The position numbers were made by a program, and so were the translations under genes. Below are positions 9 to 11,251 of a DNA stretch of 11,251 nt, in pieces. Position 1 is the stretch's first letter. Every line of letters starts with the position of its first letter. This stretch comes from Candidatus Auribacterota bacterium (lineage in GTDB: Bacteria > Auribacterota > UBA6266): positions 1 to 11,251 of the forward strand of contig JAGLRQ010000012.1 of the NCBI GenBank assembly GCA_023136205.1. The letters run 5' to 3'. Under the pieces are notes generated by a model. That model had not been told where the DNA came from. It made no database searches and was given only the letters and a program-made list of their open reading frames with translations.

Positions 9-800
9 ATGATTATAATAGGCGAAAAAATTAATACAAGTAGGAAAAGTGTCGCGGAAGCCGTGAAAAACAGGGATGGAGACTTTTTGTCAAATCTGGC
101 AAAATCACAGGAAGAGGCAGGGGCTTCTTACATTGATGTTAACGTAGGGACATTTATTAAAACTGAACCCGAAGATATGGCCTGGGTTGTTGAAACAATA
201 AGTAAAGACCTGAATATTCCTTTGTCTATTGACAGCCCCAATCCCAAGGTTGTTGAATCCGGGCTTGGTGTTCTTAACAAACCCGCGCTCATAAATTCTA
301 TTTCGCTGGAAAAGAAAAGATTTGATGGAATTCTTCCCCTTGTTAAGGAATTTGAATGCCCTGTTATTGCCCTTCTGATTGAAGATGGTAATATGCCGGA
401 TGACACGGCATCGAAAATGAAAATTGCTCATGGCCTTATTGGAAAATTAAAAAATAATGGGATAGATGATAACAGAATTTTTGTTGATCCGATGGTAAAA
501 CCTCTTAGCACAAGCATGGCCGGCCTTGCTGATATTCTTGGCTTTGTGAAGTTATTCAGGGAGAAATATCCTCGTATTCATCTTTTGTGCGGCCTTAGCA
601 ATGTATCCTTTGGCCTTCCCAACAGGGGGATTATTAATAGAGCTTTTCTTGTTATGATGATGATTCTTGGAGTAGATGCGGTTATTTGCAATCCGCTGGA
701 TAAGGAGCTTATAGGGCTTGTTGCAGCTCAGGAAGCACTTGCCGGTAAGGACGAATACTGCATGAATTATATTAAGCTTTCGAGAGAAGGAAAAATCTAA
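9..800 (+). CDS. acsE: Methyltetrahydrofolate:corrinoid/iron-sulfur protein Co-methyltransferase (AcsE-type pterin-binding TIM-barrel protein)
   Basis: 263-aa ORF. The N-terminus MIIIGEKIN matches the (L/I)IGERIN start of AcsE/MetH pterin-binding modules. DSPNP and INSIS motifs are present. The C-terminal GLSNVSFGLPNRGIINRAFLVMMMILGVDAVI is colinear with Moorella AcsE as I recall it ([30 protein letters not shown]). Length matches stand-alone AcsE (about 262 aa). Only 8 nt are visible upstream, so the RBS and promoter cannot be assessed. Confidence 0.85.
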   Translation: MIIIGEKINTSRKSVAEAVKNRDGDFLSNLAKSQEEAGASYIDVNVGTFIKTEPEDMAWVVETISKDLNIPLSIDSPNPKVVESGLGVLNKPALINSISLEKKRFDGILPLVKEFECPVIALLIEDGNMPDDTASKMKIAHGLIGKLKNNGIDDNRIFVDPMVKPLSTSMAGLADILGFVKLFREKYPRIHLLCGLSNVSFGLPNRGIINRAFLVMMMILGVDAVICNPLDKELIGLVAAQEALAGKDEYCMNYIKLSREGKI

Positions 801-806
801 AAAGCA

Positions 807-871
807 GTGAATCGTGAATAGTGAATGGTGAATCGAGAAAAACTATTCACTAAATACGAAATACAATTCAC
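807..871. repeat. GTGAAT hexamer cluster: four tandem 7-nt units plus two inverted copies
   Basis: Tandem units are gtgaatc (807-813), gtgaata (814-820), gtgaatg (821-827) and gtgaatc (828-834). Reverse-complement copies attcac lie at 845-850 and 866-871. Positions 819-828 can pair with 843-852 (10 bp including one G-T wobble, 14-nt loop). Confidence 0.8.
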
Positions 872-879
872 AAGATAGT

Positions 880-912
880 GCGTAGCGTAGCGTAGCCTTC
901 CCGGAGGGGACC
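880..912. repeat. (GCGTA)x3 tandem pentamer followed by a short GC-rich hairpin
   Basis: gcgta gcgta gcgta spans 880-894 and is followed by gccttcccggaggggacc. Within that, tccc/ggga can form a 4-bp stem around a ggag loop. The segment is GC-rich against an AT-rich background. Confidence 0.7.
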
Positions 913-930
913 AGATACTGTCTTTAAAAT

Positions 931-1557
931 ATGCAAAGCGATAAAAGTCAGCTATATCTAAAAGTTCTTGGCAAAAAAATCCCTTTTAAGAAAGGAGAGT
1001 CTTTTAGAGATGTGCTCCAGAAAAATGGGATTGAAATAATGTATCCCTGCGGGGGGGCAGGTCTTTGCGGCAGGTGTGGTATAAAGGTTTTATCGGGAAG
1101 TATCGAACCAACTTCGAAGGATAGAGATAAGTTTGATGAAAAGGATGTTCTATCTGGGTGGAGGCTGGCATGCGGGTCTGTTTTGACTGAAAACACGGAA
1201 GTTTTTGTTCCGCCGGGAAATCTTTTAAGTGAAGAGGAAATAAAGATTTCAAAAACCAGAGATGGTAAAGACGGATTTTTAAACGGTAGTAAGCAAAAGG
1301 GAAAAAGGTTTGTTGCGGGTGTTGTCATTATCACGATATCGGTTTTTTTGGGACAGCCTTTTTTTATCGCGGCTCTTGCTTGCTTCGCGGCAAAAAAATA
1401 TTTCATAGGAGTGGTCTGTTTTGTAATATACGGTATTTCCTGGATTCTTTTGCTATCGGGCATTTACCTTGCGGGTAAGGAGGGATATGTTTTTGTAAAA
1501 AAAAGGTTTAAAAGTTTTTTTAAATTTAAAAAGAAAAGAGTACAACTAAATAAATGA
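931..1557 (+). CDS. Membrane-anchored [2Fe-2S] ferredoxin-domain protein (RACo/AcsV-like N-terminal domain without the ASKHA ATPase body)
   Basis: 208-aa ORF. Residues 1-97 carry YPCGGAGLCGRCGIKV...GWRLAC, i.e. Cys40-x5-Cys46-x2-Cys49-x31-Cys81. This is the ferredoxin module found at the N-terminus of corrinoid reductive activators. Residues about 127-181 (nt 1309-1473) are strongly hydrophobic (FVAGVVIITISVFLGQPFFIAALACFAA and YFIGVVCFVIYGISWILLLSGIYLAG), followed by a Lys/Phe-rich tail. No clear Shine-Dalgarno precedes ATG 931. The stop overlaps the rnc start (ATGA, 1554-1557). Confidence 0.7.
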   Translation: MQSDKSQLYLKVLGKKIPFKKGESFRDVLQKNGIEIMYPCGGAGLCGRCGIKVLSGSIEPTSKDRDKFDEKDVLSGWRLACGSVLTENTEVFVPPGNLLSEEEIKISKTRDGKDGFLNGSKQKGKRFVAGVVIITISVFLGQPFFIAALACFAAKKYFIGVVCFVIYGISWILLLSGIYLAGKEGYVFVKKRFKSFFKFKKKRVQLNK

Positions 1558-2249
1558 CTGTACGGGATTTAACTTACCTGAAATTTGAAGAAACTATCAA
1601 TTATTCGTTTAGAAACAAATCTCTTTTAGCTCTTGCCTTAATACATAAATCTTATAAAAATGAAAATCAGGATGAGGTAGAAGATTGCAACGAGCGCCTG
1701 GAATTTCTTGGAGATTCAGTTCTAGGGTGTGCTGTGGCCGCGGCTCTTTTTAAAGAGTTTACCGATATGGATGAAGGAAGACTCTCATTTCTAAAATCAT
1801 TTGTTGTGTCGAAGAAGGTGCTCGCGTTGGTCTCTTCTGAATTAAATCTGGGAACATTCCTCAAGATGGGGAAGGGTGAGGAGAAAAGCGGAGGCAGAAC
1901 AAGGGAATCTAACCTGGCTAACGGGCTGGAAGCTTTAATAGCGGCTATTTATCTGGACAGCAGTTATTCCGCGGCAGAAGAGTGGATAATAAATAAATTC
2001 AAAAAACACATAAAAGAAGGGATTGATTTTTATAACCACGGCGCGAAAAATGAGCTCCAGGAATTTGCCCAGGCAAAATACGCGGAACTTCCGGTTTACA
2101 CGGTTTTGGATAAGCTTGGCCCCGAACATAGGAGGGAATATATTGTTCAGGTAGAGATAAATGGCAAACTGTTGGGAAAGGGTAAGGGGCCATCAAAGAA
2201 AGAGGCTGAAAGCAATGCGGCTTGTGAAGCTCTTGAAAAACTTAAGTAG
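1554..2249 (+). CDS. rnc: Ribonuclease III
   Basis: 231-aa ORF. The RNase III signature ERLEFLGDSVLG lies at residues 47-58 (nt 1692-1727). NGLEALIAAIYLD is present. The C-terminal dsRNA-binding domain reads ELQEFAQ...GPEHRREYIVQVEINGKLLGKGKGPSKKEAESNAACEALEKL. Length and domain order are canonical. Confidence 0.93.
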   Translation: MTVRDLTYLKFEETINYSFRNKSLLALALIHKSYKNENQDEVEDCNERLEFLGDSVLGCAVAAALFKEFTDMDEGRLSFLKSFVVSKKVLALVSSELNLGTFLKMGKGEEKSGGRTRESNLANGLEALIAAIYLDSSYSAAEEWIINKFKKHIKEGIDFYNHGAKNELQEFAQAKYAELPVYTVLDKLGPEHRREYIVQVEINGKLLGKGKGPSKKEAESNAACEALEKLK

Positions 2250-2478
2250 TATTTTTCCGGTGTTGTGTATTTTAATTGCAGCCCAGGGCTGTTATTTATC
2301 TCCGGAGGAAAAAGGAGAACCTGAGAAAGCGGGAAAAAAAGTTGAGCAGGCTGATGAAGATGATGAGCCGGCAATACACAAGCTTCCCCTGGTAAAAAGG
2401 ACAAAGCAAAAACTTAAAAAAATTTACAATGAAAGAAATAAACAAATAGATGAACAGTTAAACCAGATCAATAATTAA
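2215..2478 (+). CDS. Small secreted protein or lipoprotein (87 aa), function unknown
   Basis: The track ORF is 2161-2478, and I prefer the internal ATG at 2215. aaagagg (SD-like, ending at 2205) lies 9 nt upstream. The product then starts MRLVKLLKNLSSIFPVLCILIAAQGC: a basic n-region, a hydrophobic core and a Cys after AQG (an imperfect lipobox). The remainder is a charged low-complexity tail. It overlaps the last 35 nt of rnc in another frame. Confidence 0.45.
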   Translation: MRLVKLLKNLSSIFPVLCILIAAQGCYLSPEEKGEPEKAGKKVEQADEDDEPAIHKLPLVKRTKQKLKKIYNERNKQIDEQLNQINN

Positions 2479-2482
2479 AAAG

Positions 2483-2538
2483 GGATTAGTGTTTTTTGGG
2501 ATATTAAACCAACGCTAATCCTGGCCAAAAAACTTTTT
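2483..2538 (+). terminator. Possible terminator-like stem-loop after the rnc/small-ORF unit
   Basis: ggattagtgtt (2483-2493) pairs with aacgctaatcc (2511-2521): 11 bp with one G-U wobble and a 17-nt loop. A T5 run sits at 2534-2538 but is 12 nt from the stem. The long loop and distant T tract make this non-canonical. Confidence 0.3.
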
Positions 2539-2579
2539 ATTCCAAACCAATGTCAACAATAGATAACCATAAGCAAATC

Positions 2580-2608
2580 TTGATAAATATAGACAGCATC
2601 GATATAAT
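2580..2608 (+). promoter_or_regulatory. Sigma70-type promoter candidate for the giant gene
   Basis: TTGATA (2580-2585), an exact 17-nt spacer, then consensus TATAAT (2603-2608). It lies in the AT-rich gap between convergently unlinked units. It would give a leader of about 115 nt to ATG 2730 or about 180 nt to ATG 2793. Confidence 0.5.
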
Positions 2609-2665
2609 AAAACGAAGTTTTTATATTAATTGACGTAGATATTATGAAGAAATGCCTTTGATGGC

Positions 2666-2681
2666 CAGTGTGAATACACTG
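2666..2681 (+). promoter_or_regulatory. Small perfect hairpin in the predicted 5' leader
   Basis: cagtgt (2666-2671), loop gaat, acactg (2676-2681): a 6-bp perfect stem. Function is unknown. Confidence 0.3.
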
Positions 2682-2729
2682 AAAAAGATATAGAAAAACA
2701 AAAAAATATGGATAGATAAGGCAATAAAA

Positions 2730-5700
2730 ATGTTTAACTATTGCTTTAACGACACAATAACTGCTGTTAAAAAAAGGTGTTCTAATGGAAAGATGGGGAA
2801 ATATCCCATCTTTTTGTTTTTTATATGGGTGTTTTTACTGGTTTTGCCTGCGAATGTCTACGCTGATTTGCACACATGGGATGGTGATGCAGCTCCTGAT
2901 AACAATTTTAGCACAGCGGCAAACTGGGTGGGCGATGTGGCTCCGGTAGCAGACGACGACGTTACATTTAACGCTGGCGCCGTTAATTGCACACTTGACG
3001 CCTTCGATTTAGACCAGGGTGATTTTACTGTAACCGCCGGCTATAGCGGCACATTTTCTTCCTCTGGAACCTTCCTGTGCGATGCTGTTACCCTGGATTT
3101 GACTAATGCGGCGTGGAGTATATCCAATGAGTTTTATCCGGGAAGAACTGACAACGGTGCTTTGACGATTACGGCGGGAACATTCACAACATCAAACGCA
3201 ATGCAATGCAACGGCGACATTGCCTTAAGCGGCACAGGAACGATAAATCAGAGCGCCTCTTATACGGCTATGATAGGGACTGCCTCAAAGACGATCACCA
3301 ACACGGGCGGTGGGACCATTACCTTTCATAAATTTATGGAAAGCAGTGATACCAATCATGGGCAGGCCGACCCGCATCCTGATGCTAAAACAACTATCAA
3401 TGCTGATATAACAGTGAATAATTGGTGTGATATAAATGGGTGGGCTGTTGCCGGAGACGGTCAGCTAATACTTGCGGCAAATAAGACAATTACTGTTGCA
3501 AACAGCGGCTTTAACAATCAAGGAAGTTTTTCCGCAAATAGCGGGTCACTTGTAAAGGTTGATGACCACATATATTTAAATAGCAGCCACGCCTGGGAAT
3601 TCAGTAATTCAGGCACCTTTGAATGGACCGGCTCAGCCACTAAACAGTTGCGTGGAAATTCAGATAATAGCCTTAATCATTTTAATGATTTTACAATGTC
3701 AGGGTTAGCCGAACTGCAGGCATATTGGGAGGGCGGTGCCATTATCATAGATGGTAACTATTTGCAAAGTAACGGGACATTTTTAGTAGATTATTCAGGA
3801 TTTACGATAAGCGGTACAACGACAATAACAGATGGCATTCTGAGATTCCTGAAAAACGGGACATTAACAGGTTCTGTAATAATAGGTTCCCCGGGAGGAA
3901 CCGGTGAGCTTGAGTTAAAAGCCTCATCTGAGAATCTAACTCTTACTATAGATACTTCTATTACAACTACGAATAGCGGTTTTATTGACGTTGATTGGAC
4001 TGATGGGGTGAATACGGCTACCATAGATGGCGTTAATGGTGATGAAACTATTAGCGGCAACGATTTTGATATAGGCACAAATGGGCAGGTTCTTTATCTT
4101 AGCGATATTGACTGTCAAATTTCCACCGTAACCTTGGGCAGCAACGAACACATTCGACTTTCCGGCGACTGCACCTTTGATGCTATAACATTAAATGGTG
4201 ACGCAAACACAGAGTTTACAACTAACGATAACAAGGCTGCGTGTTCGGGAGGCACGCTTACTGTAACCAGTGGTGTTGTTACTATTTCTGATGGCGGGGA
4301 GATTGATGCTGCCGGGCAGAATGTTTCAACAGCCGCAAATGGCGCCATTACCTTAGTCGGCAATTCTACTTTAAAAGCGGTTAATATTACCAATGCAGGG
4401 ACTATTAATTTGGACCATAACAGCAATGTTATCGATATTACCGGCAATATTGATAACGATAATGCTATTGATGTCGCCGGAACATCTGCCAATATTTACC
4501 TTGAAGGCAACTGGGATAATACGGGCGGTGCTTTTACCTGTGGATCTTCGACGGTAACTTTTGATGGAACTGCCGCTGGTCAAACCCTGACAAGCGATAC
4601 CGAGACTTATAATATCATAACTGTTTCTAATTCTCATGCTGACGGAGTTATCTTCGCGGATGCTTTTACGACCGAGACTTTCAATGATACGACAGGCAAT
4701 AGCAAACTTACGTTTAACGCGGGGGATACCTATACCATAACGGGAGCGGCAGGATTAAACCTTGACGGCGGGGCTGCGGGAAGTGAGATAACTATAATCA
4801 GTGACAGCGCGGGAACACAGTTTATTTTTAATGTTACGGGGGGTTCTCAGACGGTAACATATGTAAATGTAAAAGATTCCGCGGCGAGTACTAACAATAT
4901 AACAGCCAATATTTCAATAAACAGTGGAGGAAATGACGACGGTGATCCTGATCCTCATTGGGTATTTGGCAATGTTACGAGATACTGGGTAGCGGCGGGT
5001 AACAGCGATTGGGATACCAATGCCAACTGGTCATCTTTTTCCGGTGGTGGAGGCGGGGCGGATTATCCCACTGCCGGAGATACTGCTGTATTTGATAATG
5101 GAAGTGACTTTAACTGTACCCTTGATGCTGTTGTGTCTATAGCGGTATTGAATGTTCAATCTGGTTATGATGGGATTATCTCCTGTGGGACTGATAACTT
5201 TACAACGTCGGGCAATATGACTTTATCCGATGGTATATACACAGTTGGTGCGAATATAACCCGGGTAGATGGGACATTAACTGTATCGGGAGGCACCGGT
5301 ACTTTTACCTCGGGAGCAATAGATGCTAATGGAGCGGTTAGTATAACGGGCGGGGAGCTTATTGCCCCCAGCGGTGATTTTAATGTAGCCGCCAATTGGT
5401 CTCATGCCGGTGGGATCTTTACGCATTCAGACGGCACGGTTATCTTTGACACGGCCGCGGTTTCCACCATCGCCAATGATACCACCTTCTATGATTTGAG
5501 TTGTACTACAGCCGGCAAAACAATTAATGTTACTGCTGGAACCACACAAACGGTAGATAATACTTTAACAGTGGACGGCCAGGATTCTGCCACTAAAATA
5601 ACTTTGCATTCTACAGCGGATAATAACAGTTATATCTTAGATTTTCCTGCTGGCTCTCAGACAATAATATATGTTGATTTAAAGGATTGTACAGCGGGGA

Positions 5701-8700
5701 CTACCGCGTCGACGGCTTATAATTCCATTGATTCGACAGGTAATACCAACTGGACATTCCTGCGTGTTGATCCCTACGGTGTAGTTTTTGATTCTGTAAG
5801 CGATAGTCCGATTCAGGGAGCGGTAGTTACCATATATACTTCGGCGGGAGTAGAGTGTACATCCGGTATTGAGATAGATGCCGCGGACACTAATCCCCAG
5901 ACAACCGGAGTTGACGGAGCGTACTCATACAATTGTATAAACGGCGATTATTACATTACAATAACTGCTAATGGATATGCATATCCGACCGCTAAAACAG
6001 ATGCGGAACTTCCTTTCGCGCGAACCATAGTTACCCCGGGTTCCAGGGGAGAAGAATTTACTGTAGCCGGCGTAGTAATAGAGATGGACCATCCGATGGA
6101 TCCTGGAGTTAACCTGCTCACGATAAAAAAGGACGCGAACAAAGAGGAAGCAGCTATTGGTGACATTGTAACTTATACGGTTTCGATAGAAAATGCCACC
6201 GCGAGTGATATCAGCAATGTATATATAGAAGACAAGATTCCACCCGGCTTTAAATATATAGATGGTAAAACGATTTTGGATGGTCAACGCATATCCGATC
6301 CTACGGGTAACAGGCCGCTTACATTTAATATTGACACAGTAGAATCGGGCCAGGCCCGGGCCCTAAAATATCAACTGGTTGTAGGTACCGGAGTAACAAC
6401 CGGTTATTATAAAAATGAAGCGTTCGCGAAATCGGGTGCAAATTCCGTGATCATATCCAATATTGCAACAGAAACAGTTAAGGTCGTTTTTGACCCGCTT
6501 TTTGATTTAGCTGTTGTTATTGGCAAAGTATTCTGGGATCACAATGAGAATGGCAGACAAGATTCGTCGTCCCCCTACGCCCTTCGGGCTTCAAAGGACA
6601 GGCAGTCTACAGTCCACAGTCCACGGACAACAGAGTCAGGGATTGCTAATGTACAGATTGTAATGGAAGACGGTACAATTGTAACTACGGGTAAAGACGG
6701 CAAGTATCACCTGCAGGCCATAATTCCCGGAAGACATCTTTTTAGATTAAATGAAAAAACTCTTCCTGACGGAGCTTATTTAACTACGGATAAAGTTGTT
6801 ATAGCGGATATTACTCCCGGGCTCCTTACCAAGGTAAACTTTGGGGTAACATGTTCTACCCTGATGGACACAGGTGAGTCGCAAGCTATGAGCAGGGCTA
6901 AAGCGCCTTTTGTAGTTGCTCAGGAAAGGTCGAGACCTCTTCCCCGTCTTAATGTTGCCGGTAGACTAAAAATAGAAACCGGTAAATTGAAGGGTGAATA
7001 TGAATTCAGGATTTTTACCAATTATAACTTATTTATAAAGAAATGGACGCTGGAAATACTGGATAAAGATACAAAATGGGTTGTAAAAACATTTAGAGGT
7101 ACAAAAGATAATATTTTTGGCCCTATTTATTGGGATGGTATGACGGATGATAAAGAGTTAATAGTGGATGATCCCGAAAGGACAGGTAAAAATTATGTTT
7201 ACAGGTTAAGAGTAACGGGAGCCGCGAACAAGGAAGATGAAACGTTGGAAAAGGAATTTGACCTCTCAACCAAATATGAAGAATGGTTAGAAAAAGAGAG
7301 CAGGACGAATAATTTAGAAAAACAGACAATTAAAATAAAAGGAGAAACAATAAAAATCCATGGCCTGGAATCTTCAGACAGTATCCGGGTTATGAAATCA
7401 GGCGAGGTTCAGGCTGAGATACCGGTTACAGGAAGCGAAGGATTGGCGGCGAAAGATCTGCTGGAAGGATTTGCGTATGATAAACCTCCGCAGGTTGAGA
7501 TAATTTTACCTGACGGCCGGTATGATATAAAACTTAAATCTGAGAGAGATCAAAATATTGAAGGAAGTATTATAGAACCAAAAACATCAGCGGAAGGCTC
7601 GTCTGTTCCACCTGAAAGTTACTCACAACACATTAAGGTTGGAGATGATTATTTGTTCTTTGTAGGTATGGGGGATGCTAAGGCAGGTTATACTTTTAAC
7701 AGCGGAAACATTGAACCGGTATCGCACGATGATAAATTTAAAGAAGGATTCTGGTATGAAGGTAAATTAGCTTATTATTTAAAAGGGAAAGTTCTTGGTA
7801 AGTTCCTTATTACGTCGAGCCTGGATACCGAAAGACATAAGAAAGAACTATTCAGGAATCTGGATCCAAACAAATACTATCCTATTTACGGAGATAGTTC
7901 ATCGGCTGACTATAAAGCTGCGGATACCCAGGGGACATTATATCTTTTAATTGAATGGGATAAATCCTCGGTTATATGGGGTAACTACAATACAGCTTTT
8001 ACTGATACGGAGTTTGCTCAATTCAGCCGGACACTTTACGGTGGCAAAGTCCATCTTGAGACGACGTCTGCCACGCAATTTGGTGAACCTCATACAAAAT
8101 TAGTTGTTTTTTATGCTGAAGCCAAACAGAAGTCCGCGCATAACGAGTTTACAGGTACGGGAGGATCGCTTTATTACCTTAAAAACAAGGATGTTATTGA
8201 AGGTTCTCAGAAGGTTGAGATAGAAGTCAGAGATAAGATTACCGGCCTTGTTTTAGCTTCAGAGAAAATGAGAGAAGGTTCTGACTATGAGATAGATTAT
8301 GAGAATGGCCGAATTATTTTCTGGCAGCCGTTAAGTTACATAACTGAATCGAATTCAATAATATCTACCCACCTTCTGGATGGCAACCATGTTTATGTAG
8401 TTGTAGATTATGAATATGAAGTGAAAGATTATACTGATCAGACATCTGTTGGTGCTCGGGCTGAAGCTGCACTGGGTGACTATTTAAGTGTGGGTGGGAC
8501 CTATGTTAAAGAAGAGCTGATGGAAGAAAATTATGAATTAAGGGGAGTGGATGCAACGCTGCATTTAGGCAAGGATATAAAGTTAACCGCAGAATATGCC
8601 GAGACTAAAGCGGAGGCAGAGAGGAGTTTCATTTCCACAGACGGCGGGTTAAACTTTATCGAGCTTGCTACAAAAGAAGATACCAGAGGTGAAGCTTACG

Positions 8701-10844
8701 GGTTAAAAGGGGAAGCCCATTTGTTTGATAACAGACTTGGCCTGACCGGTTATTATAAACGGATAGATGATAATTTTTCGACTTCGGCTACAAGCTCGCA
8801 GCAAGGCAAAGAACTTATTGGCTTTGGTTTTGCATATGATATTTTTAAGAGGACAAGGTTAATCCTATCACATGACATCCAGAAATTAATTGATGGCGGT
8901 AATCTTCAGGCCCGGCTCCAGGTTGGCGCAAAGAAGACTGAAACAACCTTGGCTCAGGTTGTTCATGATATGGATAGACTGAAACTAACCGGTGAATACC
9001 GCCATCAGGCGGTAACCGAGCGCAAGAATGAGTTTGACTCTGAAACTAATACTAAAGGCGATATTGTTGCTATAAGAGCGGATTATGAATTGACTGAAAA
9101 AGTAGATGTGTCGTTAGAACAGCAGGCAGCGCTTAAAGGGGAGGCTAATTATCAGACTACAGCTGGTGTTAAAGCGAGGATGTTTGACTGGTTATCTTTG
9201 CGCGGCAAAGGGACTGTTGGCAATGATGGTATTTCCTCGAGTATTGGAGCAACGACTGATGTAAATGACAAGATAAAAATTTCCGGTGATTATACGAGAG
9301 CTGATTATGCGGCAGGAGAAAGCAGTGACTCTGTATCTTTAGGCGCGAGCGCAAAGACGGATGATAAAACTGAAATTCACACTACTTATGCTGTAACTGA
9401 TTCTACTATTGACGGTGAAACCTCATCCCTTACTTTTGGCTCGAAGAAAGAAATGGGGAATGGAATAGAGTTAGTCACAGACAAAACGGTTGCTGTTTCC
9501 GGGGACAAAAAGAGTTATGGTACAGATGTTGGATTGGCAAGAGAAAAAGACGGTAAGAGGTTAGAAGCTACTTTTGGAGAACAATATTCTGAGAGTTCTA
9601 CGGAAATATCCAATTCAAATATCTTCGGTTTGTCAGGCGCCATTAATAATAGATGGGCTGCTGCAACAACTTTTGAACGCGGTATTATCCAGAACCATGA
9701 TGGAACCGAGACGATGAGAAATGCCGGTACTTTAAGATTGGGTTTTGTTGATAAAGATGAAAAAACCGGTGAACTAAAACTTAAAGCATCAACTAAAATA
9801 GAGCTTCGTTTTGACAGAGGGGATGTAAGCAAGAGACAGTATCTTTCATATAGTGCCCTTGAGAGAAAACTTCATCGTGATACAACACTTTTTGCCAAGG
9901 CAAATTTATCCCAGACTAAAGATGTTGCCGCGGATTCGGTTGAAGCACAGTATAAAGAACTGGTGTTTGGAACAGCTTACAGGCCTGCCCAATTTGACTG
10001 GCTTAATCTATTAACTAAATATTCCTATTTAGAAAATGATGCGGCTATTTCACAGGAAGATATTGACGGGATTGAAAAAGAAAGGGCTCATATATTGGCA
10101 GGGGAGGCTGTTATTGATTTAACTCCAAGGTTGCGGTTAACAGAAAAACTTGCTTACAGAATGGGGGAAGAAAGAGTAGCCGGGTTTGATTTTACAAAAG
10201 CCTCAACATGGCTCTGGATAAACAGGCTTGGTTACAACATAGGTGATGGCTGGCAGTTAGCAGGTGAATATAGGATTTTAGGCCAGAAAGAAGCAAAAGA
10301 TCAGAAACATGGTGCTTTGATTGAAATAAACAAAGACATAGGGGATTTTGTCCAAGTTGGTGTTGGATATAACTTTACGGATTTTAACGATGATTTAACA
10401 CACCTTGATTATACTGCCCATGGCCCTTTTGTCAGAATAACAGGTAAACTCTATGAACGTACAAACGAAGAGGTAGAACGCGCTGAACAGAAAAAACTAA
10501 GGCGGAAAATACATCGGTGGACACTGGCGCTGGTTTACGATGTACTGGCAAAGCCCGGCAGTGAAGTTATGAAGGAATTGAATAATTGTTTTTCTTTAGC
10601 CCGTGCCGCGCAAGAGAGCGGGAGATTGGAAGAAGCGAAGAAATATTATAAAAAAATATTATATACTCACGAAATGATATATGATAAAACGGTTAACTAT
10701 ATAACAAAGTGTATTAAGTTAGATGAAAATCTCAGAAGTTATAATAAACTTGTTTCAGAACTTTACAATGAGGGCGGGTTGGCAAAAGTAAAAGAATTGT
10801 GGGCCAGAATAATTACAGAATCCAGGTGGGAGGGAAAAGAATGA
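2730..10844 (+). CDS. Giant secreted surface/outer-membrane mosaic protein (2704 codons from ATG 2730; 2683 from ATG 2793)
   Basis: Uninterrupted 8115-nt ORF carrying several recognisable domain motifs, listed as sub-features below. Start is ambiguous. ATG 2730 has aagg 8 nt upstream. ATG 2793 begins a textbook signal peptide (MGKYPIFLFFIWVFLLVLPANVYA/DL). The stop overlaps the next gene's ATG (ATGA, 10841-10844). Confidence 0.9.
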   Translation: MFNYCFNDTITAVKKRCSNGKMGKYPIFLFFIWVFLLVLPANVYADLHTWDGDAAPDNNFSTAANWVGDVAPVADDDVTFNAGAVNCTLDAFDLDQGDFTVTAGYSGTFSSSGTFLCDAVTLDLTNAAWSISNEFYPGRTDNGALTITAGTFTTSNAMQCNGDIALSGTGTINQSASYTAMIGTASKTITNTGGGTITFHKFMESSDTNHGQADPHPDAKTTINADITVNNWCDINGWAVAGDGQLILAANKTITVANSGFNNQGSFSANSGSLVKVDDHIYLNSSHAWEFSNSGTFEWTGSATKQLRGNSDNSLNHFNDFTMSGLAELQAYWEGGAIIIDGNYLQSNGTFLVDYSGFTISGTTTITDGILRFLKNGTLTGSVIIGSPGGTGELELKASSENLTLTIDTSITTTNSGFIDVDWTDGVNTATIDGVNGDETISGNDFDIGTNGQVLYLSDIDCQISTVTLGSNEHIRLSGDCTFDAITLNGDANTEFTTNDNKAACSGGTLTVTSGVVTISDGGEIDAAGQNVSTAANGAITLVGNSTLKAVNITNAGTINLDHNSNVIDITGNIDNDNAIDVAGTSANIYLEGNWDNTGGAFTCGSSTVTFDGTAAGQTLTSDTETYNIITVSNSHADGVIFADAFTTETFNDTTGNSKLTFNAGDTYTITGAAGLNLDGGAAGSEITIISDSAGTQFIFNVTGGSQTVTYVNVKDSAASTNNITANISINSGGNDDGDPDPHWVFGNVTRYWVAAGNSDWDTNANWSSFSGGGGGADYPTAGDTAVFDNGSDFNCTLDAVVSIAVLNVQSGYDGIISCGTDNFTTSGNMTLSDGIYTVGANITRVDGTLTVSGGTGTFTSGAIDANGAVSITGGELIAPSGDFNVAANWSHAGGIFTHSDGTVIFDTAAVSTIANDTTFYDLSCTTAGKTINVTAGTTQTVDNTLTVDGQDSATKITLHSTADNNSYILDFPAGSQTIIYVDLKDCTAGTTASTAYNSIDSTGNTNWTFLRVDPYGVVFDSVSDSPIQGAVVTIYTSAGVECTSGIEIDAADTNPQTTGVDGAYSYNCINGDYYITITANGYAYPTAKTDAELPFARTIVTPGSRGEEFTVAGVVIEMDHPMDPGVNLLTIKKDANKEEAAIGDIVTYTVSIENATASDISNVYIEDKIPPGFKYIDGKTILDGQRISDPTGNRPLTFNIDTVESGQARALKYQLVVGTGVTTGYYKNEAFAKSGANSVIISNIATETVKVVFDPLFDLAVVIGKVFWDHNENGRQDSSSPYALRASKDRQSTVHSPRTTESGIANVQIVMEDGTIVTTGKDGKYHLQAIIPGRHLFRLNEKTLPDGAYLTTDKVVIADITPGLLTKVNFGVTCSTLMDTGESQAMSRAKAPFVVAQERSRPLPRLNVAGRLKIETGKLKGEYEFRIFTNYNLFIKKWTLEILDKDTKWVVKTFRGTKDNIFGPIYWDGMTDDKELIVDDPERTGKNYVYRLRVTGAANKEDETLEKEFDLSTKYEEWLEKESRTNNLEKQTIKIKGETIKIHGLESSDSIRVMKSGEVQAEIPVTGSEGLAAKDLLEGFAYDKPPQVEIILPDGRYDIKLKSERDQNIEGSIIEPKTSAEGSSVPPESYSQHIKVGDDYLFFVGMGDAKAGYTFNSGNIEPVSHDDKFKEGFWYEGKLAYYLKGKVLGKFLITSSLDTERHKKELFRNLDPNKYYPIYGDSSSADYKAADTQGTLYLLIEWDKSSVIWGNYNTAFTDTEFAQFSRTLYGGKVHLETTSATQFGEPHTKLVVFYAEAKQKSAHNEFTGTGGSLYYLKNKDVIEGSQKVEIEVRDKITGLVLASEKMREGSDYEIDYENGRIIFWQPLSYITESNSIISTHLLDGNHVYVVVDYEYEVKDYTDQTSVGARAEAALGDYLSVGGTYVKEELMEENYELRGVDATLHLGKDIKLTAEYAETKAEAERSFISTDGGLNFIELATKEDTRGEAYGLKGEAHLFDNRLGLTGYYKRIDDNFSTSATSSQQGKELIGFGFAYDIFKRTRLILSHDIQKLIDGGNLQARLQVGAKKTETTLAQVVHDMDRLKLTGEYRHQAVTERKNEFDSETNTKGDIVAIRADYELTEKVDVSLEQQAALKGEANYQTTAGVKARMFDWLSLRGKGTVGNDGISSSIGATTDVNDKIKISGDYTRADYAAGESSDSVSLGASAKTDDKTEIHTTYAVTDSTIDGETSSLTFGSKKEMGNGIELVTDKTVAVSGDKKSYGTDVGLAREKDGKRLEATFGEQYSESSTEISNSNIFGLSGAINNRWAAATTFERGIIQNHDGTETMRNAGTLRLGFVDKDEKTGELKLKASTKIELRFDRGDVSKRQYLSYSALERKLHRDTTLFAKANLSQTKDVAADSVEAQYKELVFGTAYRPAQFDWLNLLTKYSYLENDAAISQEDIDGIEKERAHILAGEAVIDLTPRLRLTEKLAYRMGEERVAGFDFTKASTWLWINRLGYNIGDGWQLAGEYRILGQKEAKDQKHGALIEINKDIGDFVQVGVGYNFTDFNDDLTHLDYTAHGPFVRITGKLYERTNEEVERAEQKKLRRKIHRWTLALVYDVLAKPGSEVMKELNNCFSLARAAQESGRLEEAKKYYKKILYTHEMIYDKTVNYITKCIKLDENLRSYNKLVSELYNEGGLAKVKELWARIITESRWEGKE
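2793..2864 (+). other. Sec-type signal peptide of the giant protein (residues 22-45 of the ORF)
   Basis: MGK n-region, YPIFLFFIWVFLLVLP hydrophobic core, ANVYA c-region with an A-x-A-like cleavage site before DLHTWDG. Confidence 0.75.
2871..4967 (+). other. Passenger module A: Gly/Thr/Asn/Asp-rich beta-helix-like region with conserved head and cap motifs
   Basis: Head: HTWDGDAAPDNNFSTAANWVGDVAPVADDDVTFNAGAVNCTLDA. This is followed by long runs of short T/G/N/S/D-rich beta-strand-like segments. Cap (residues 594-746): NWDNTGGAFTCGSSTVTFDG...GSQTVTYVNVKDSAAS...NSGGNDDGDPDPHWVF. Confidence 0.6.
4980..5759 (+). repeat. Passenger module B: shorter diverged duplicate of module A (protein-level repeat)
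   Basis: Head RYWVAAGNSDWDTNANW...YPTAGDTAVFDNGSDFNCTLDA parallels the module A head. Cap NWSHAGGIFTHSDGTVIFD...GSQTIIYVDLKDCTAG...IDSTGNTNWTF parallels the module A cap. DNA at 4839-4889 versus 5649-5699 is roughly 70 percent identical by eye. Confidence 0.65.
5766..5984 (+). other. Carboxypeptidase-regulatory-like / Cna-B-like beta-sandwich domain
   Basis: VDPYGVVFDSVSDSPIQGAVVTIYT...TTGVDGAYSYNCINGDYYITITANGYAY fits the D-P-x-G-V-V-x-D...P-I-x-G-A-x-V-T-L...G-x-Y...G-x-Y-x-h-x-h...G-Y pattern of this fold. Confidence 0.6.
6108..6479 (+). other. DUF11 ('conserved repeat domain') surface-protein domain
   Basis: LLTIKKDANKEEAAIGDIVTYTVSIENATASDISNVYIEDKIPPGFKYIDGKTILDG fits the DUF11 pattern K-x(n)-G-D-x-V-x-Y-T-h-x-V-x-N-x-G...V-x-h-x-D-x-h-P-x-G. 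It is preceded by the typical MDHPMDP linker. Confidence 0.7.
6513..6848 (+). other. SdrD-B-like / Cna-B-type domain, interrupted by an insertion
   Basis: VIGKVFWDHNENGRQDS[22 aa]ESGIANVQIVMEDGTIVTTGKDGKYHLQAIIPGRHLFRLNEKTLPDG. Outside the brackets this matches the IGKVF-x-D-x-N-x-NG-x-QD-x-GE-x-GI-x-GV...EDG...TD-x-x-G-x-Y...PG-x-H...TLP-x-G pattern. Confidence 0.65.
6567..6632 (+). repeat. 66-nt GC-rich in-frame insertion (SSPYALRASKDRQSTVHSPRTT) containing three tandem 7-nt units
   Basis: About 59 percent GC by hand count, in visibly AT-richer surroundings. Contains ctacgcc, a gccc-ttc-gggc hairpin (6579-6589), and cagtcta/cagtcca/cagtcca (6603-6623). It sits exactly where the family motif expects only x-G between QD and E-x-GI. 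Confidence 0.6.
6990..7244 (+). other. FlgD-Ig-like beta-sandwich domain (tentative)
   Basis: YEFRIFTNYNLFIKKWTLEILDKDTKWVVKTFRGTKDNIFGPIYWDGMTDDKELIVDDPERTGKNYVYRLRVTG fits the W-x-L-x-I-x-D...V-x-x-F-x-G...I-x-WDG-x-x-D...G-x-Y-x-Y-x-L-x-V pattern seen in FlgD-Ig-type modules of surface proteins. Confidence 0.4.
8442..10454 (+). other. Array of about 18 beta-hairpin units: predicted very large outer-membrane beta-barrel (possibly starting as early as nt 7635)
   Basis: Amphipathic strand pairs are joined by short turns recurring every 27-53 residues. Turns seen: LGDYLSVGG, LGKDIKLTA, FDNRLGLTG, FKRTRLILS, MDRLKLTG, LTEKVDVSL, MFDWLSLRG, VNDKIKISG, TDDKTEIHT, GNGIELVT, DGKRLEAT, INNRWAAAT, TGELKLKA, LHRDTTLFA, QFDWLNLLT, LTPRLRLTE, IGDGWQLAG, IGDFVQVGV. 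The array ends with a beta-signal-like strand, GVGYNFTDF...GPFVRITGKLY. Confidence 0.55.
10455..10841 (+). other. 129-aa charged alpha-helical C-terminal extension with a TPR-like motif
   Basis: ERTNEEVERAEQKKLRRKIHRW...ELNNCFSLARAAQESGRLEEAKKYYKKILYTHEM...LAKVKELWARIITESRWEGKE. There is no beta-strand alternation. One motif of about 34 aa is TPR-like (about nt 10566-10667). Confidence 0.5.
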
Positions 10845-11251
10845 AACAGATTATAAGGTTTTTGAGAAAAACTATTATACCGACTATAGTAGTGGTTGCC
10901 CTTTTTGGTTGCGTTCCTTTAAATTATGCTCAGGAAGATTTGAATAAAGATGATATATCCTTTGGAAAAACTAAAACCCGAAATTATACCCTGAATCTAA
11001 AGCAGCTTATAAAGGAGACAGAAAAAAATATAAAGAAGGTTGAAAATGAGATAGAAGAAGGGAAAATTAACGACCGCAATCGGAAAAGAGAAGATGAAGT
11101 CAAAAAACATTTTGAAAAAGGAAATATTCTTCATAAGGAAGGTAAATTAAAGGAAGCAAAAAAAGAGTGGCAGAAAGCATTAAAAATTAGCAAAGACCCT
11201 GAAATGAAAGGTTATATAAAGGAAAGTGCAAAAAGGGCGAAGAAGGAAGAG
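10841..11251 (+). CDS. TPR-like lipoprotein, 5' part only (137 codons, runs off the window)
   Basis: Absent from the supplied track because it has no stop in the window. I translated it by hand. ATG 10841 is preceded by GGAGG (10829-10833, 7-nt spacing). MKQIIRFLRKTIIPTIVVVALFGC has a lipobox-like LFGC with Cys24. It continues without stops through a Lys/Glu-rich helical region carrying the TPR-like motif VKKHFEKGNILHKEGKLKEAKKEWQKALKISKDP (nt 11099-11200). Confidence 0.75.
   Translation, partial: MKQIIRFLRKTIIPTIVVVALFGCVPLNYAQEDLNKDDISFGKTKTRNYTLNLKQLIKETEKNIKKVENEIEEGKINDRNRKREDEVKKHFEKGNILHKEGKLKEAKKEWQKALKISKDPEMKGYIKESAKRAKKEE

Follow-up and report, generated by a model that had tools for sequence, protein, structure and literature searches.

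A predicted outer-membrane beta-barrel of about 44–46 strands in a protein from Candidatus Auribacterota and its linkage to DUF11/SdrD-B domains

The stretch of DNA analyzed here (the window) is 11,251 bp long and represents one entire contig (JAGLRQ010000012.1) in the genome assembly of a Candidatus Auribacterota bacterium (GCA_023136205.1; 1.76 Mb, 93% complete). P0001, a single open reading frame (ORF) of 2704 aa on the + strand (nt 2730..10844), encodes a protein in which residues ~1641-2575 are predicted to form one closed, antiparallel outer-membrane beta-barrel (OMBB) with ~44-46 strands (count ±2). The closure of this barrel is supported by coevolution, which provides evidence independent of AlphaFold. 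The predicted barrel would be wider than any barrel whose structure has been solved. The parts of P0001 described below and the gene downstream of it are encoded on the + strand of the window.

Closure and size of the predicted barrel

Residues 1601-2704 of P0001 were aligned with 57 relatives that share 27-61% identity (A2 alignment, 58 rows), and this alignment was used as the input for AlphaFold2; residue i of the resulting model is residue 1600+i of P0001. The model has a mean predicted local distance difference test score (pLDDT) of 81.2 and a predicted template modeling score (pTM) of 0.72. DSSP assigns to it 46 strands of 7-19 residues outside an inserted domain, followed by four helices. 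The first eight strands (model 41-59, 73-88, 92-99, 137-143, 146-154, 168-177, 189-198, and 201-208) lead into a small beta domain (209-285), after which come 38 more strands (286 to 975) and the four long helices (979-1098). Barrel strands 1-7, identified from DSSP and coevolution ladders, are encoded at nt 7650..8123 (aa 1641-1798), with strand 1 itself at nt 7650-7706 (aa 1641-1659). A further 37 consecutive strands are encoded at nt 8439..10454 (aa 1904-2575), and coevolution backs most of their sequential hairpins. The last of them (aa 2561-2575, nt 10410..10454; …GPFVRITGKLY) is placed by the family alignments at the beta-signal position of the family.

The residues that form this barrel can also be followed through pairwise couplings. 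Mean-field direct coupling analysis (DCA) was applied with the full alphabet to subsets of columns, using 381 distinct family sequences on query columns (effective number, Meff, 322). Two pairs on the antiparallel register i+j=1018 stand out among 73,168: 49-969 ranks 7 and 55-963 ranks 39 (model numbering). The pairs 47-971, 57-960, and 44-976 fall approximately on the same register. The ladder that they form between strand 1 and strand 51, the last strand, has a z of 5.2, which is above every background strand pair and equal to the sequential hairpin 1-2; ladders 1-2, 2-3, 3-4, and 5-6 have z values of 5.4-8.5. In two further column windows, the closure ladder scores 1.2-1.4, while no pairing of strand 1 or the last strand with a middle strand exceeds 0.8. 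Only one further non-sequential signal is seen; it links two clade-specific hairpins (see below) and is co-occurrence, not contact. Thus, the first–last ladder is the sole genuine non-sequential one, which indicates one closure and one barrel spanning aa 1641-2575. With a 10-letter reduced alphabet over all columns, the z of closure is only 2.2.

Structural comparisons returned the same class of protein. Foldseek searches of PDB with the whole model found only outer-membrane barrels, with SlpA (30 strands; E 2.8e-8) first and SprA (36 strands) next. SprA (PDB 6H3I and 8GL6), the translocon of T9SS (type IX secretion system), is the largest solved single-chain barrel. SprA is the first match of the whole model in VIA-align, with a Z of 15.4 and an alignment of 633 residues that spans model 38..974 (root-mean-square deviation, rmsd, 11.8 Å). 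The VIA-align matches to small porins extend from model ~45 to ~975, which requires the N- and C-terminal strands to adjoin. At the level of sequence, phmmer and a profile search against PDB sequences (E<=10) found no barrel homolog, the sole match being the Omp32 porin at an E of 0.078. No Pfam or NCBIfam model covers the barrel in P0001 or in the members from Stenotrophomonas and Halopseudomonas. Distant relatives match the Pfam models OMP_b-brl and OmpA_membrane within the barrel module, and matches in the ESM Atlas are only to unnamed "hypothetical / outer membrane protein" clusters of ~850 aa.

The number of strands in the wall depends on how the strands flanking the inserted domain are assigned. 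Counted from the C terminus, loop parity is consistent along the chain, with long loops outside and turns of 2-4 residues on the periplasmic side. Assigning the flanking strands (model 201-208 and 286-296) to the insert alone leaves 7+37 = 44 strands for the wall. The total rises to 46 if both are part of the wall as well, which is what the two-residue turn between 189-198 and 201-208 suggests. The ladders that bear on this choice, 7-15 and 8-14, have z values of 2.0 and 2.2. Taking the radius as 4.4 Å / (2 sin(pi/n) cos tilt), with an assumed tilt near 42 degrees, the predicted C-alpha diameter would be ~8 nm and the lumen roughly 7-8 nm (compared with ~6.8 nm for SprA by the same formula), values that presuppose a shear number.

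The first-pass annotation of the window had proposed a barrel of ~36 strands, in the size class of the largest known, from ~18 evenly spaced hairpins at nt 8442-10454 (aa 1905-2575). The evenly spaced strand-turn-strand array is borne out by the model, in which aa 1904-2575 contain 37 DSSP strands of 8-17 residues each; these make 18.5 hairpins with a mean of ~36 aa, within the spacing of 27-53 residues originally given. In aa 1905-2575, strong hydrophobic/polar alternation is seen in 34 windows of nine residues, compared with 8.7 +/- 4.3 in shuffled sequences. Conversely, the turn motif h-x-(D/N/G)-(K/R/W/G)-h-x-h-x-h, reported to recur 18 times, has only one strict match there (WINRLGYNI, aa 2496), against 0.66 +/- 0.81 in 1000 shuffles; a loosened pattern has 8, against 3.8 +/- 1.8. 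The estimate of ~36 strands holds for the interval on which it was made (37 by DSSP). It falls short for the barrel as a whole, in which seven to nine more strands precede that interval from aa 1641 onward, giving a total of ~44-46. The four strand-like segments quoted from nt 7635 onward are all strands in the model (41-59, 73-88, 137-154, and 189-198). The model is a single large barrel, neither a solenoid nor tandem small domains, and its strand count is far above the ordinary range of 12-22. The assignment to the largest size class also agrees with the Foldseek and VIA-align results, in which all matches are outer-membrane barrels and the largest (SprA and SlpA) lead.

Several features of P0001 and its genome are those of an OMBB assembled by BAM, the beta-barrel assembly machinery of a diderm. 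BamA is encoded in the same genome (PF01103, E 4.9e-74, above cut-off). A Sec signal peptide, MGKYPIFLFFIWVFLLVLPANVYA followed by D, starts at Met22 (aa 22-45, nt 2793-2864); it was read by eye from the translation and ends in VYA before the D. The first ATG of the ORF would place 21 residues (MFNYCFNDTITAVKKRCSNGK; nt 2730-2792) ahead of this textbook signal peptide. Judging from the sequence, the true start is probably Met22 at nt 2793. As for the beta-signal, the family consensus ...GxFxNxxGKF stands at the end of the protein in most members. The equivalent strand of P0001 ends in GKLY and is internal, being followed by a tail of 129 aa, a layout shared with OmpA-like proteins that have a periplasmic domain at the C terminus.

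Inserted domains, family extent, and partner genes

The wall of the barrel is predicted to be interrupted after strand 7/8 by an immunoglobulin (Ig)-like beta-sandwich (aa 1799-1900, nt 8124..8429; consensus GTGGSLYYL...EVRD...DYEIDY..GRI), as seen from couplings and from a sub-model (A3) in which model residues 95-335 (241 aa) were folded alone with 77 trimmed relatives (pLDDT 77.6). Residues 105-206 of the sub-model form an Ig-like sandwich that matches phage Ig-like domains (Z 7-8.7, rmsd 1.6-2.5 Å, 63-76 residues aligned), and the flanking strands match barrel walls, best that of SprA (Z 10.8), then OccD2 (Z 8.2) and SlpA (Z 7.9). With the 241-aa sub-model as query, Foldseek was uninformative (adhesins and hemolysins at TM ~0.2). 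At the two ends of the insert, model strands 201-208 and 286-296 pair together (coupling 204-293) and also couple with the sandwich (229-292 and 264-290 in DCA).

The most conserved motif of the family, LFRxLDPDxYYPVYGDDST, is carried by the 37-aa loop that joins strands 3 and 4 (aa 1700-1736, nt 7827..7937) and has invariant D, Y, G, and D columns. This loop lies outside the barrel wall and has a low pLDDT, and it holds the most invariant residues of the family. It coevolves with the Ig-like insert (couplings 114-256, 116-289, and 112-215). The loop, which probably sits with the insert in or over the lumen, may serve for binding or gating.

Exhaustive searching with HMMER brought up 3020 representatives of 50%-identity clusters at E<=1e-3, a number that falls to 1060 at E<=1e-30. 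The conserved family module corresponds to aa ~1630-2573, where the proteins of most relatives end with ...GKF; the end coordinate of the first-pass interval, nt 10454, coincides exactly with the end of this module. The shortest relatives are barrels of ~900 aa, and the longest have 7612 aa. Scanning genomes that represent species gave at least 596 confirmed loci in at least 596 species. Among the matches listed are Omnitrophota, Planctomycetota, Acidobacteriota, Nitrospirota, Campylobacterota, and many Pseudomonadota, and the cultivated strains among them belong to Stenotrophomonas, Lysobacter, Luteimonas, Halopseudomonas, Kangiella, and Leucothrix. Within the phylum of the window, the module occurs in 8 of 79 genomes and is missing from the sister genus. 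One genome (G012) has at least eight paralogs on different contigs, while most in the phylum carry no copy.

The conserved module is accompanied by a second element. A region homologous to aa 1100-1330 of P0001 (DUF11 plus SdrD-B-like) was sought in 80 loci, and 71 of these have it in the barrel protein itself or in the product of the preceding gene: it lies in the barrel ORF in 37 loci and in the immediately upstream ORF on the same strand in 34. The remaining nine include several in which the barrel ORF is cut by the end of a contig. For instance, Stenotrophomonas (L051:18-2093 with 2098-5763) and Halopseudomonas (L042:47-1942 with 1942-5649) have split pairs of adjacent or overlapping genes, the downstream one encoding a barrel protein of ~1220 aa. 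According to Pfam, the upstream protein contains Big_9, DUF11, and SdrD_B in Stenotrophomonas and DUF11 plus OmpA_C in Halopseudomonas. In Lysobacter, the partner is likewise encoded immediately upstream. Fused or split, the barrel and its partner make up one two-part system.

In P0001 itself, the region in question starts with a DUF11 (TIGR01451) Ig-fold domain (aa 1130-1235, nt 6117..6434; Pfam E 2.5e-11, NCBIfam E 6.5e-12), followed by the SdrD-B-like stretch. DUF11 is the sole domain recognized in P0001 by Pfam and NCBIfam, apart from a weak TPR_8 match. Directly ahead of the barrel are ~250 aa of conserved beta-rich domains (nt 6867..7619), where the A1/A2 consensus reaches upstream of the barrel. 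They are common to the stand-alone members of ~1220 aa, and relatives match FlgD_ig and Glucodextran_B there (Pfam). N-terminal regions of 1600 to ~6700 aa occur in the family and are built of beta-helix, DUF11, SdrD_B, and Big domains.

Other parts are restricted to the clade of P0001. One extra hairpin (model 577-608, nt 9258..9353) has a gap fraction of 0.64-0.80 in distant and 0.05-0.08 in close relatives and a pLDDT of ~75; the other (model 660-691, nt 9507..9602) has a gap fraction of 0.91 in distant and 0.17 in close relatives and a pLDDT of 32-46. Without these two hairpins (four strands), the barrels of the distant majority would have ~40-42 strands. The tail of four long helices (aa 2576-2704, nt 10455..10841; DSSP at model 979-1098, pLDDT 82-95), which gives the weak TPR_8 match, is found in 11 loci (L003-L014), all in an Omnitrophota-type clade. 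Because it comes after the last barrel strand, it should be periplasmic. The gene downstream of P0001 (nt 10841..11251, truncated by the end of the contig) encodes a lipoprotein with a lipobox (LFGC) and TPR-like repeats, as judged from its translation, TPR matches, and homologs, and its start overlaps the stop codon of P0001 (ATGA). A homolog of this lipoprotein gene follows directly on the same strand in 11 of the 11 tail-bearing loci, where its ORF has at least 970 aa, and in none of the loci compared that lack the helical tail. Nothing on the barrel family came up in the literature on giant genes of Omnitrophota or in that on DUF11 combined with barrels.

Upstream of P0001, the window encodes housekeeping proteins (nt 9-2249): a pterin-binding methyltransferase (acsE-like, with a weak CdhD match), a 2Fe-2S protein, and RNase III. 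The 2Fe-2S protein is a ferredoxin-domain protein. These genes hint at a Wood–Ljungdahl-type metabolism and have no relation to the surface protein P0001.

Proposed function and rival explanations

Taken together, we consider it reasonably probable that P0001 is a closed, BAM-inserted giant barrel that anchors, and probably passes, an N-terminal fiber of Ig-fold and beta-helix domains to the cell surface, with the insert and the conserved loop in the lumen. BAM would insert aa ~1641-2575 into the outer membrane as one closed barrel, which would hold the fiber and probably pass it to the surface, and the Ig-like insert together with the loop would gate a lumen roughly 7-8 nm wide. In its fused form, the system would resemble a very large autotransporter, and in its split form, a two-partner or usher-like pair. 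The patchy distribution, the presence of at least eight paralogs in one genome, and N-terminal regions of up to ~6700 aa are more in keeping with an accessory surface protein than with core envelope machinery. A broader proposal, put forward tentatively, is that the family is an unrecognized and widespread secretion/anchoring system in which barrels of 40-46 strands export and hold DUF11/SdrD-B fibers, fused or encoded by the adjacent gene, with the insert and loop as the gate. In that case, the barrel would be the widest single-chain membrane pore known. The first-pass annotation had raised the possibility that so large a barrel serves as a pore or translocon and not just as an anchor.

Some observations weigh against this reading of P0001 as a fiber-anchoring giant barrel. 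Hydrophobic alternation is only moderate, with a family-averaged face difference above 1.5 in 27 of 44 strands, and strands 3 and 4 are short (5-8 aa). Because the strands were counted from DSSP strings, loop parity, and coevolution, not from coordinates, the count stands at 44 or 46. The pLDDT is 30-57 over model 641-710, so that the second extra hairpin may be a loop rather than wall, and it is below 60 over model 101-130. The model has no helical or extended linker through the pore, and its residues 1-36 have a pLDDT below 50. In some relatives, an OmpA-type peptidoglycan-binding domain occurs N-terminal to the barrel (P0172 and related proteins) or forms the C terminus of the DUF11 protein encoded upstream (L042). 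Such domains would put at least the N-terminal regions concerned in the periplasm, which argues against plain export of all that precedes the barrel. The stretches of low pLDDT and the incomplete alternation of faces could also be taken to mean that the single giant barrel is a modeling artifact, the true structure combining a smaller barrel with soluble beta domains or consisting of two tandem barrels, and AlphaFold DB is known to mispredict some very large barrels (bioRxiv 10.64898/2026.03.07.710327). We regard such an artifact as very improbable: two barrels would show two internal closures, of which coevolution reveals none, whereas the first–last ladder is as strong as the sequential hairpins and is the only non-sequential one. 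Moreover, the isolated N-terminal piece still models as a wall-like sheet plus an Ig domain, and AlphaFold2 reproduced the 36-strand barrel of SprA without templates (bioRxiv 10.1101/2022.10.09.511469).

If the barrel is accepted as giant, the Ig-fold region might still remain in the periplasm. P0001 would then be a connector between the outer membrane and the cell wall or a large gated pore, as SlpA and OmpM are, or a plug-and-barrel pair such as LptD–LptE and MtrB–MtrA, with the DUF11/SdrD-B region plugging the lumen from below rather than being displayed outside. The OmpA_C domains mentioned above favor such an arrangement, as does loop parity, which puts the start of strand 1 on the periplasmic side; something must plug a lumen of 7-8 nm, and the helical tail and TPR lipoprotein would be further periplasmic parts. 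However, N-terminal regions of 1600 to ~6700 aa built of beta-helix, DUF11, SdrD_B, and Big domains are typical of surface fibers and hard to fit into a periplasm, harder still in a small-celled organism with a 1.76-Mb genome. The patchy, multi-paralog distribution is also unlike that of a core envelope tether, and most members lack any peptidoglycan-binding domain. A periplasmic location is therefore rather unlikely in our judgment, though it is the main rival. We think it improbable that the barrel is a distant relative of SprA that exports separate substrates, the fused N-terminal region being accessory. In structure, both the whole model (Z 15.4) and the sub-model (Z 10.8, 186 residues aligned, 19% identity) match SprA best, and both barrels have inserted domains, but the profile search of PDB at E<=10 did not return SprA, no SprA model of Pfam or NCBIfam matched at E<=0.1, the rmsd is 9.6-11.8 Å, and the strand number differs. 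The family is also widespread in Pseudomonadota, which lack the T9SS, and its conserved neighbor is a DUF11 protein rather than PorV or Plug.

The family offers thousands of members without a Pfam or NCBIfam model, cultivable genera (Stenotrophomonas, Lysobacter, Halopseudomonas, Kangiella, and Leucothrix), and a partner gene. Family size, cultivable hosts, and partner linkage bring two questions within direct reach of experiment: by what means many Gram-negative bacteria place very large Ig-fold fibers on or under the outer membrane, and how BAM assembles, and the cell plugs, a pore of 7-8 nm.

Comparison with known systems

Type Va autotransporters (PF03797) share with P0001 a single chain with a signal peptide, a repetitive N-terminal passenger, and a C-terminal barrel with a beta-signal. 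They differ in having 12 strands instead of ~44-46 and a pore-spanning helix where the P0001 model has a segment that is disordered before strand 1. Pfam finds no PF03797 match in P0001. The present family also has split two-gene forms and, in some relatives, a periplasmic OmpA_C domain N-terminal to the barrel. Ushers such as FimD and PapC (24 strands) are alike in carrying a beta-sandwich inserted between early wall strands and in handling Ig-fold cargo. They are the second-best structural class in VIA-align (Z 11-13 over model ~40-600), a partial match that indicates resemblance only. In ushers, the plug is flanked by strands 6 and 7. The P0001 barrel is nearly twice as large, and its insert is nearer to phage Ig-like domains than to the plug of ushers (the sub-model matches FimD at Z 6.5). 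Neither a Pfam Usher match in P0001 nor a chaperone gene nearby was found.

The tethers SlpA of Deinococcus (30 strands, with a peptidoglycan-binding S-layer homology [SLH] domain and a coiled coil) and OmpM resemble the present family in their large C-terminal barrel and in their N-terminal periplasmic or wall-binding parts, comparable to OmpA_C in some members. P0001 differs in lacking SLH and coiled coil, the TM-score is only 0.21-0.23, and the distribution of the family is accessory and patchy. SprA, like P0001, has a giant barrel with domains inserted in wall connections, and both would need a plug. It has no detectable sequence similarity to the P0001 barrel and differs in strand number, taxonomic range, and partners. 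A 2026 preprint names SprA as the largest known barrel (bioRxiv 10.64898/2026.03.07.710327).

Barrels of more than 36 strands are already known as predictions, and none has been solved. A superfamily of 38- and 40-strand OMBBs was predicted from contact maps (Solan et al., 2021; PMC8346858), and three 38-strand barrels with an N-terminal Ig-like domain were reported in D. radiodurans (AAF11946, UID71982, and UID69687; von Kuegelgen et al., 2022; PMC9388160, Table S3). Like P0001, these are single barrels of more than 36 strands by prediction (contact maps or AlphaFold) with N-terminal Ig-like domains and no solved structure, and their 38 or 40 strands are close to the ~40-42 of the majority of the present family, a comparison made by description only. 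By the same descriptions, the clade of P0001 differs in its two extra hairpins, 129-aa helical tail, TPR lipoprotein, and 1600-aa passenger. Linkage to a DUF11/SdrD-B partner is not described for those barrels in the passages of the two articles considered here (PMC8346858, PMC9388160). What the present family adds to the earlier predictions is the AlphaFold-independent evidence for closure, the predicted count of 44-46 strands, the two clade-specific hairpins, the Ig-like insert, the rule that the DUF11/SdrD-B region is fused or adjacent, and the pairing of the helical tail with the lipoprotein.

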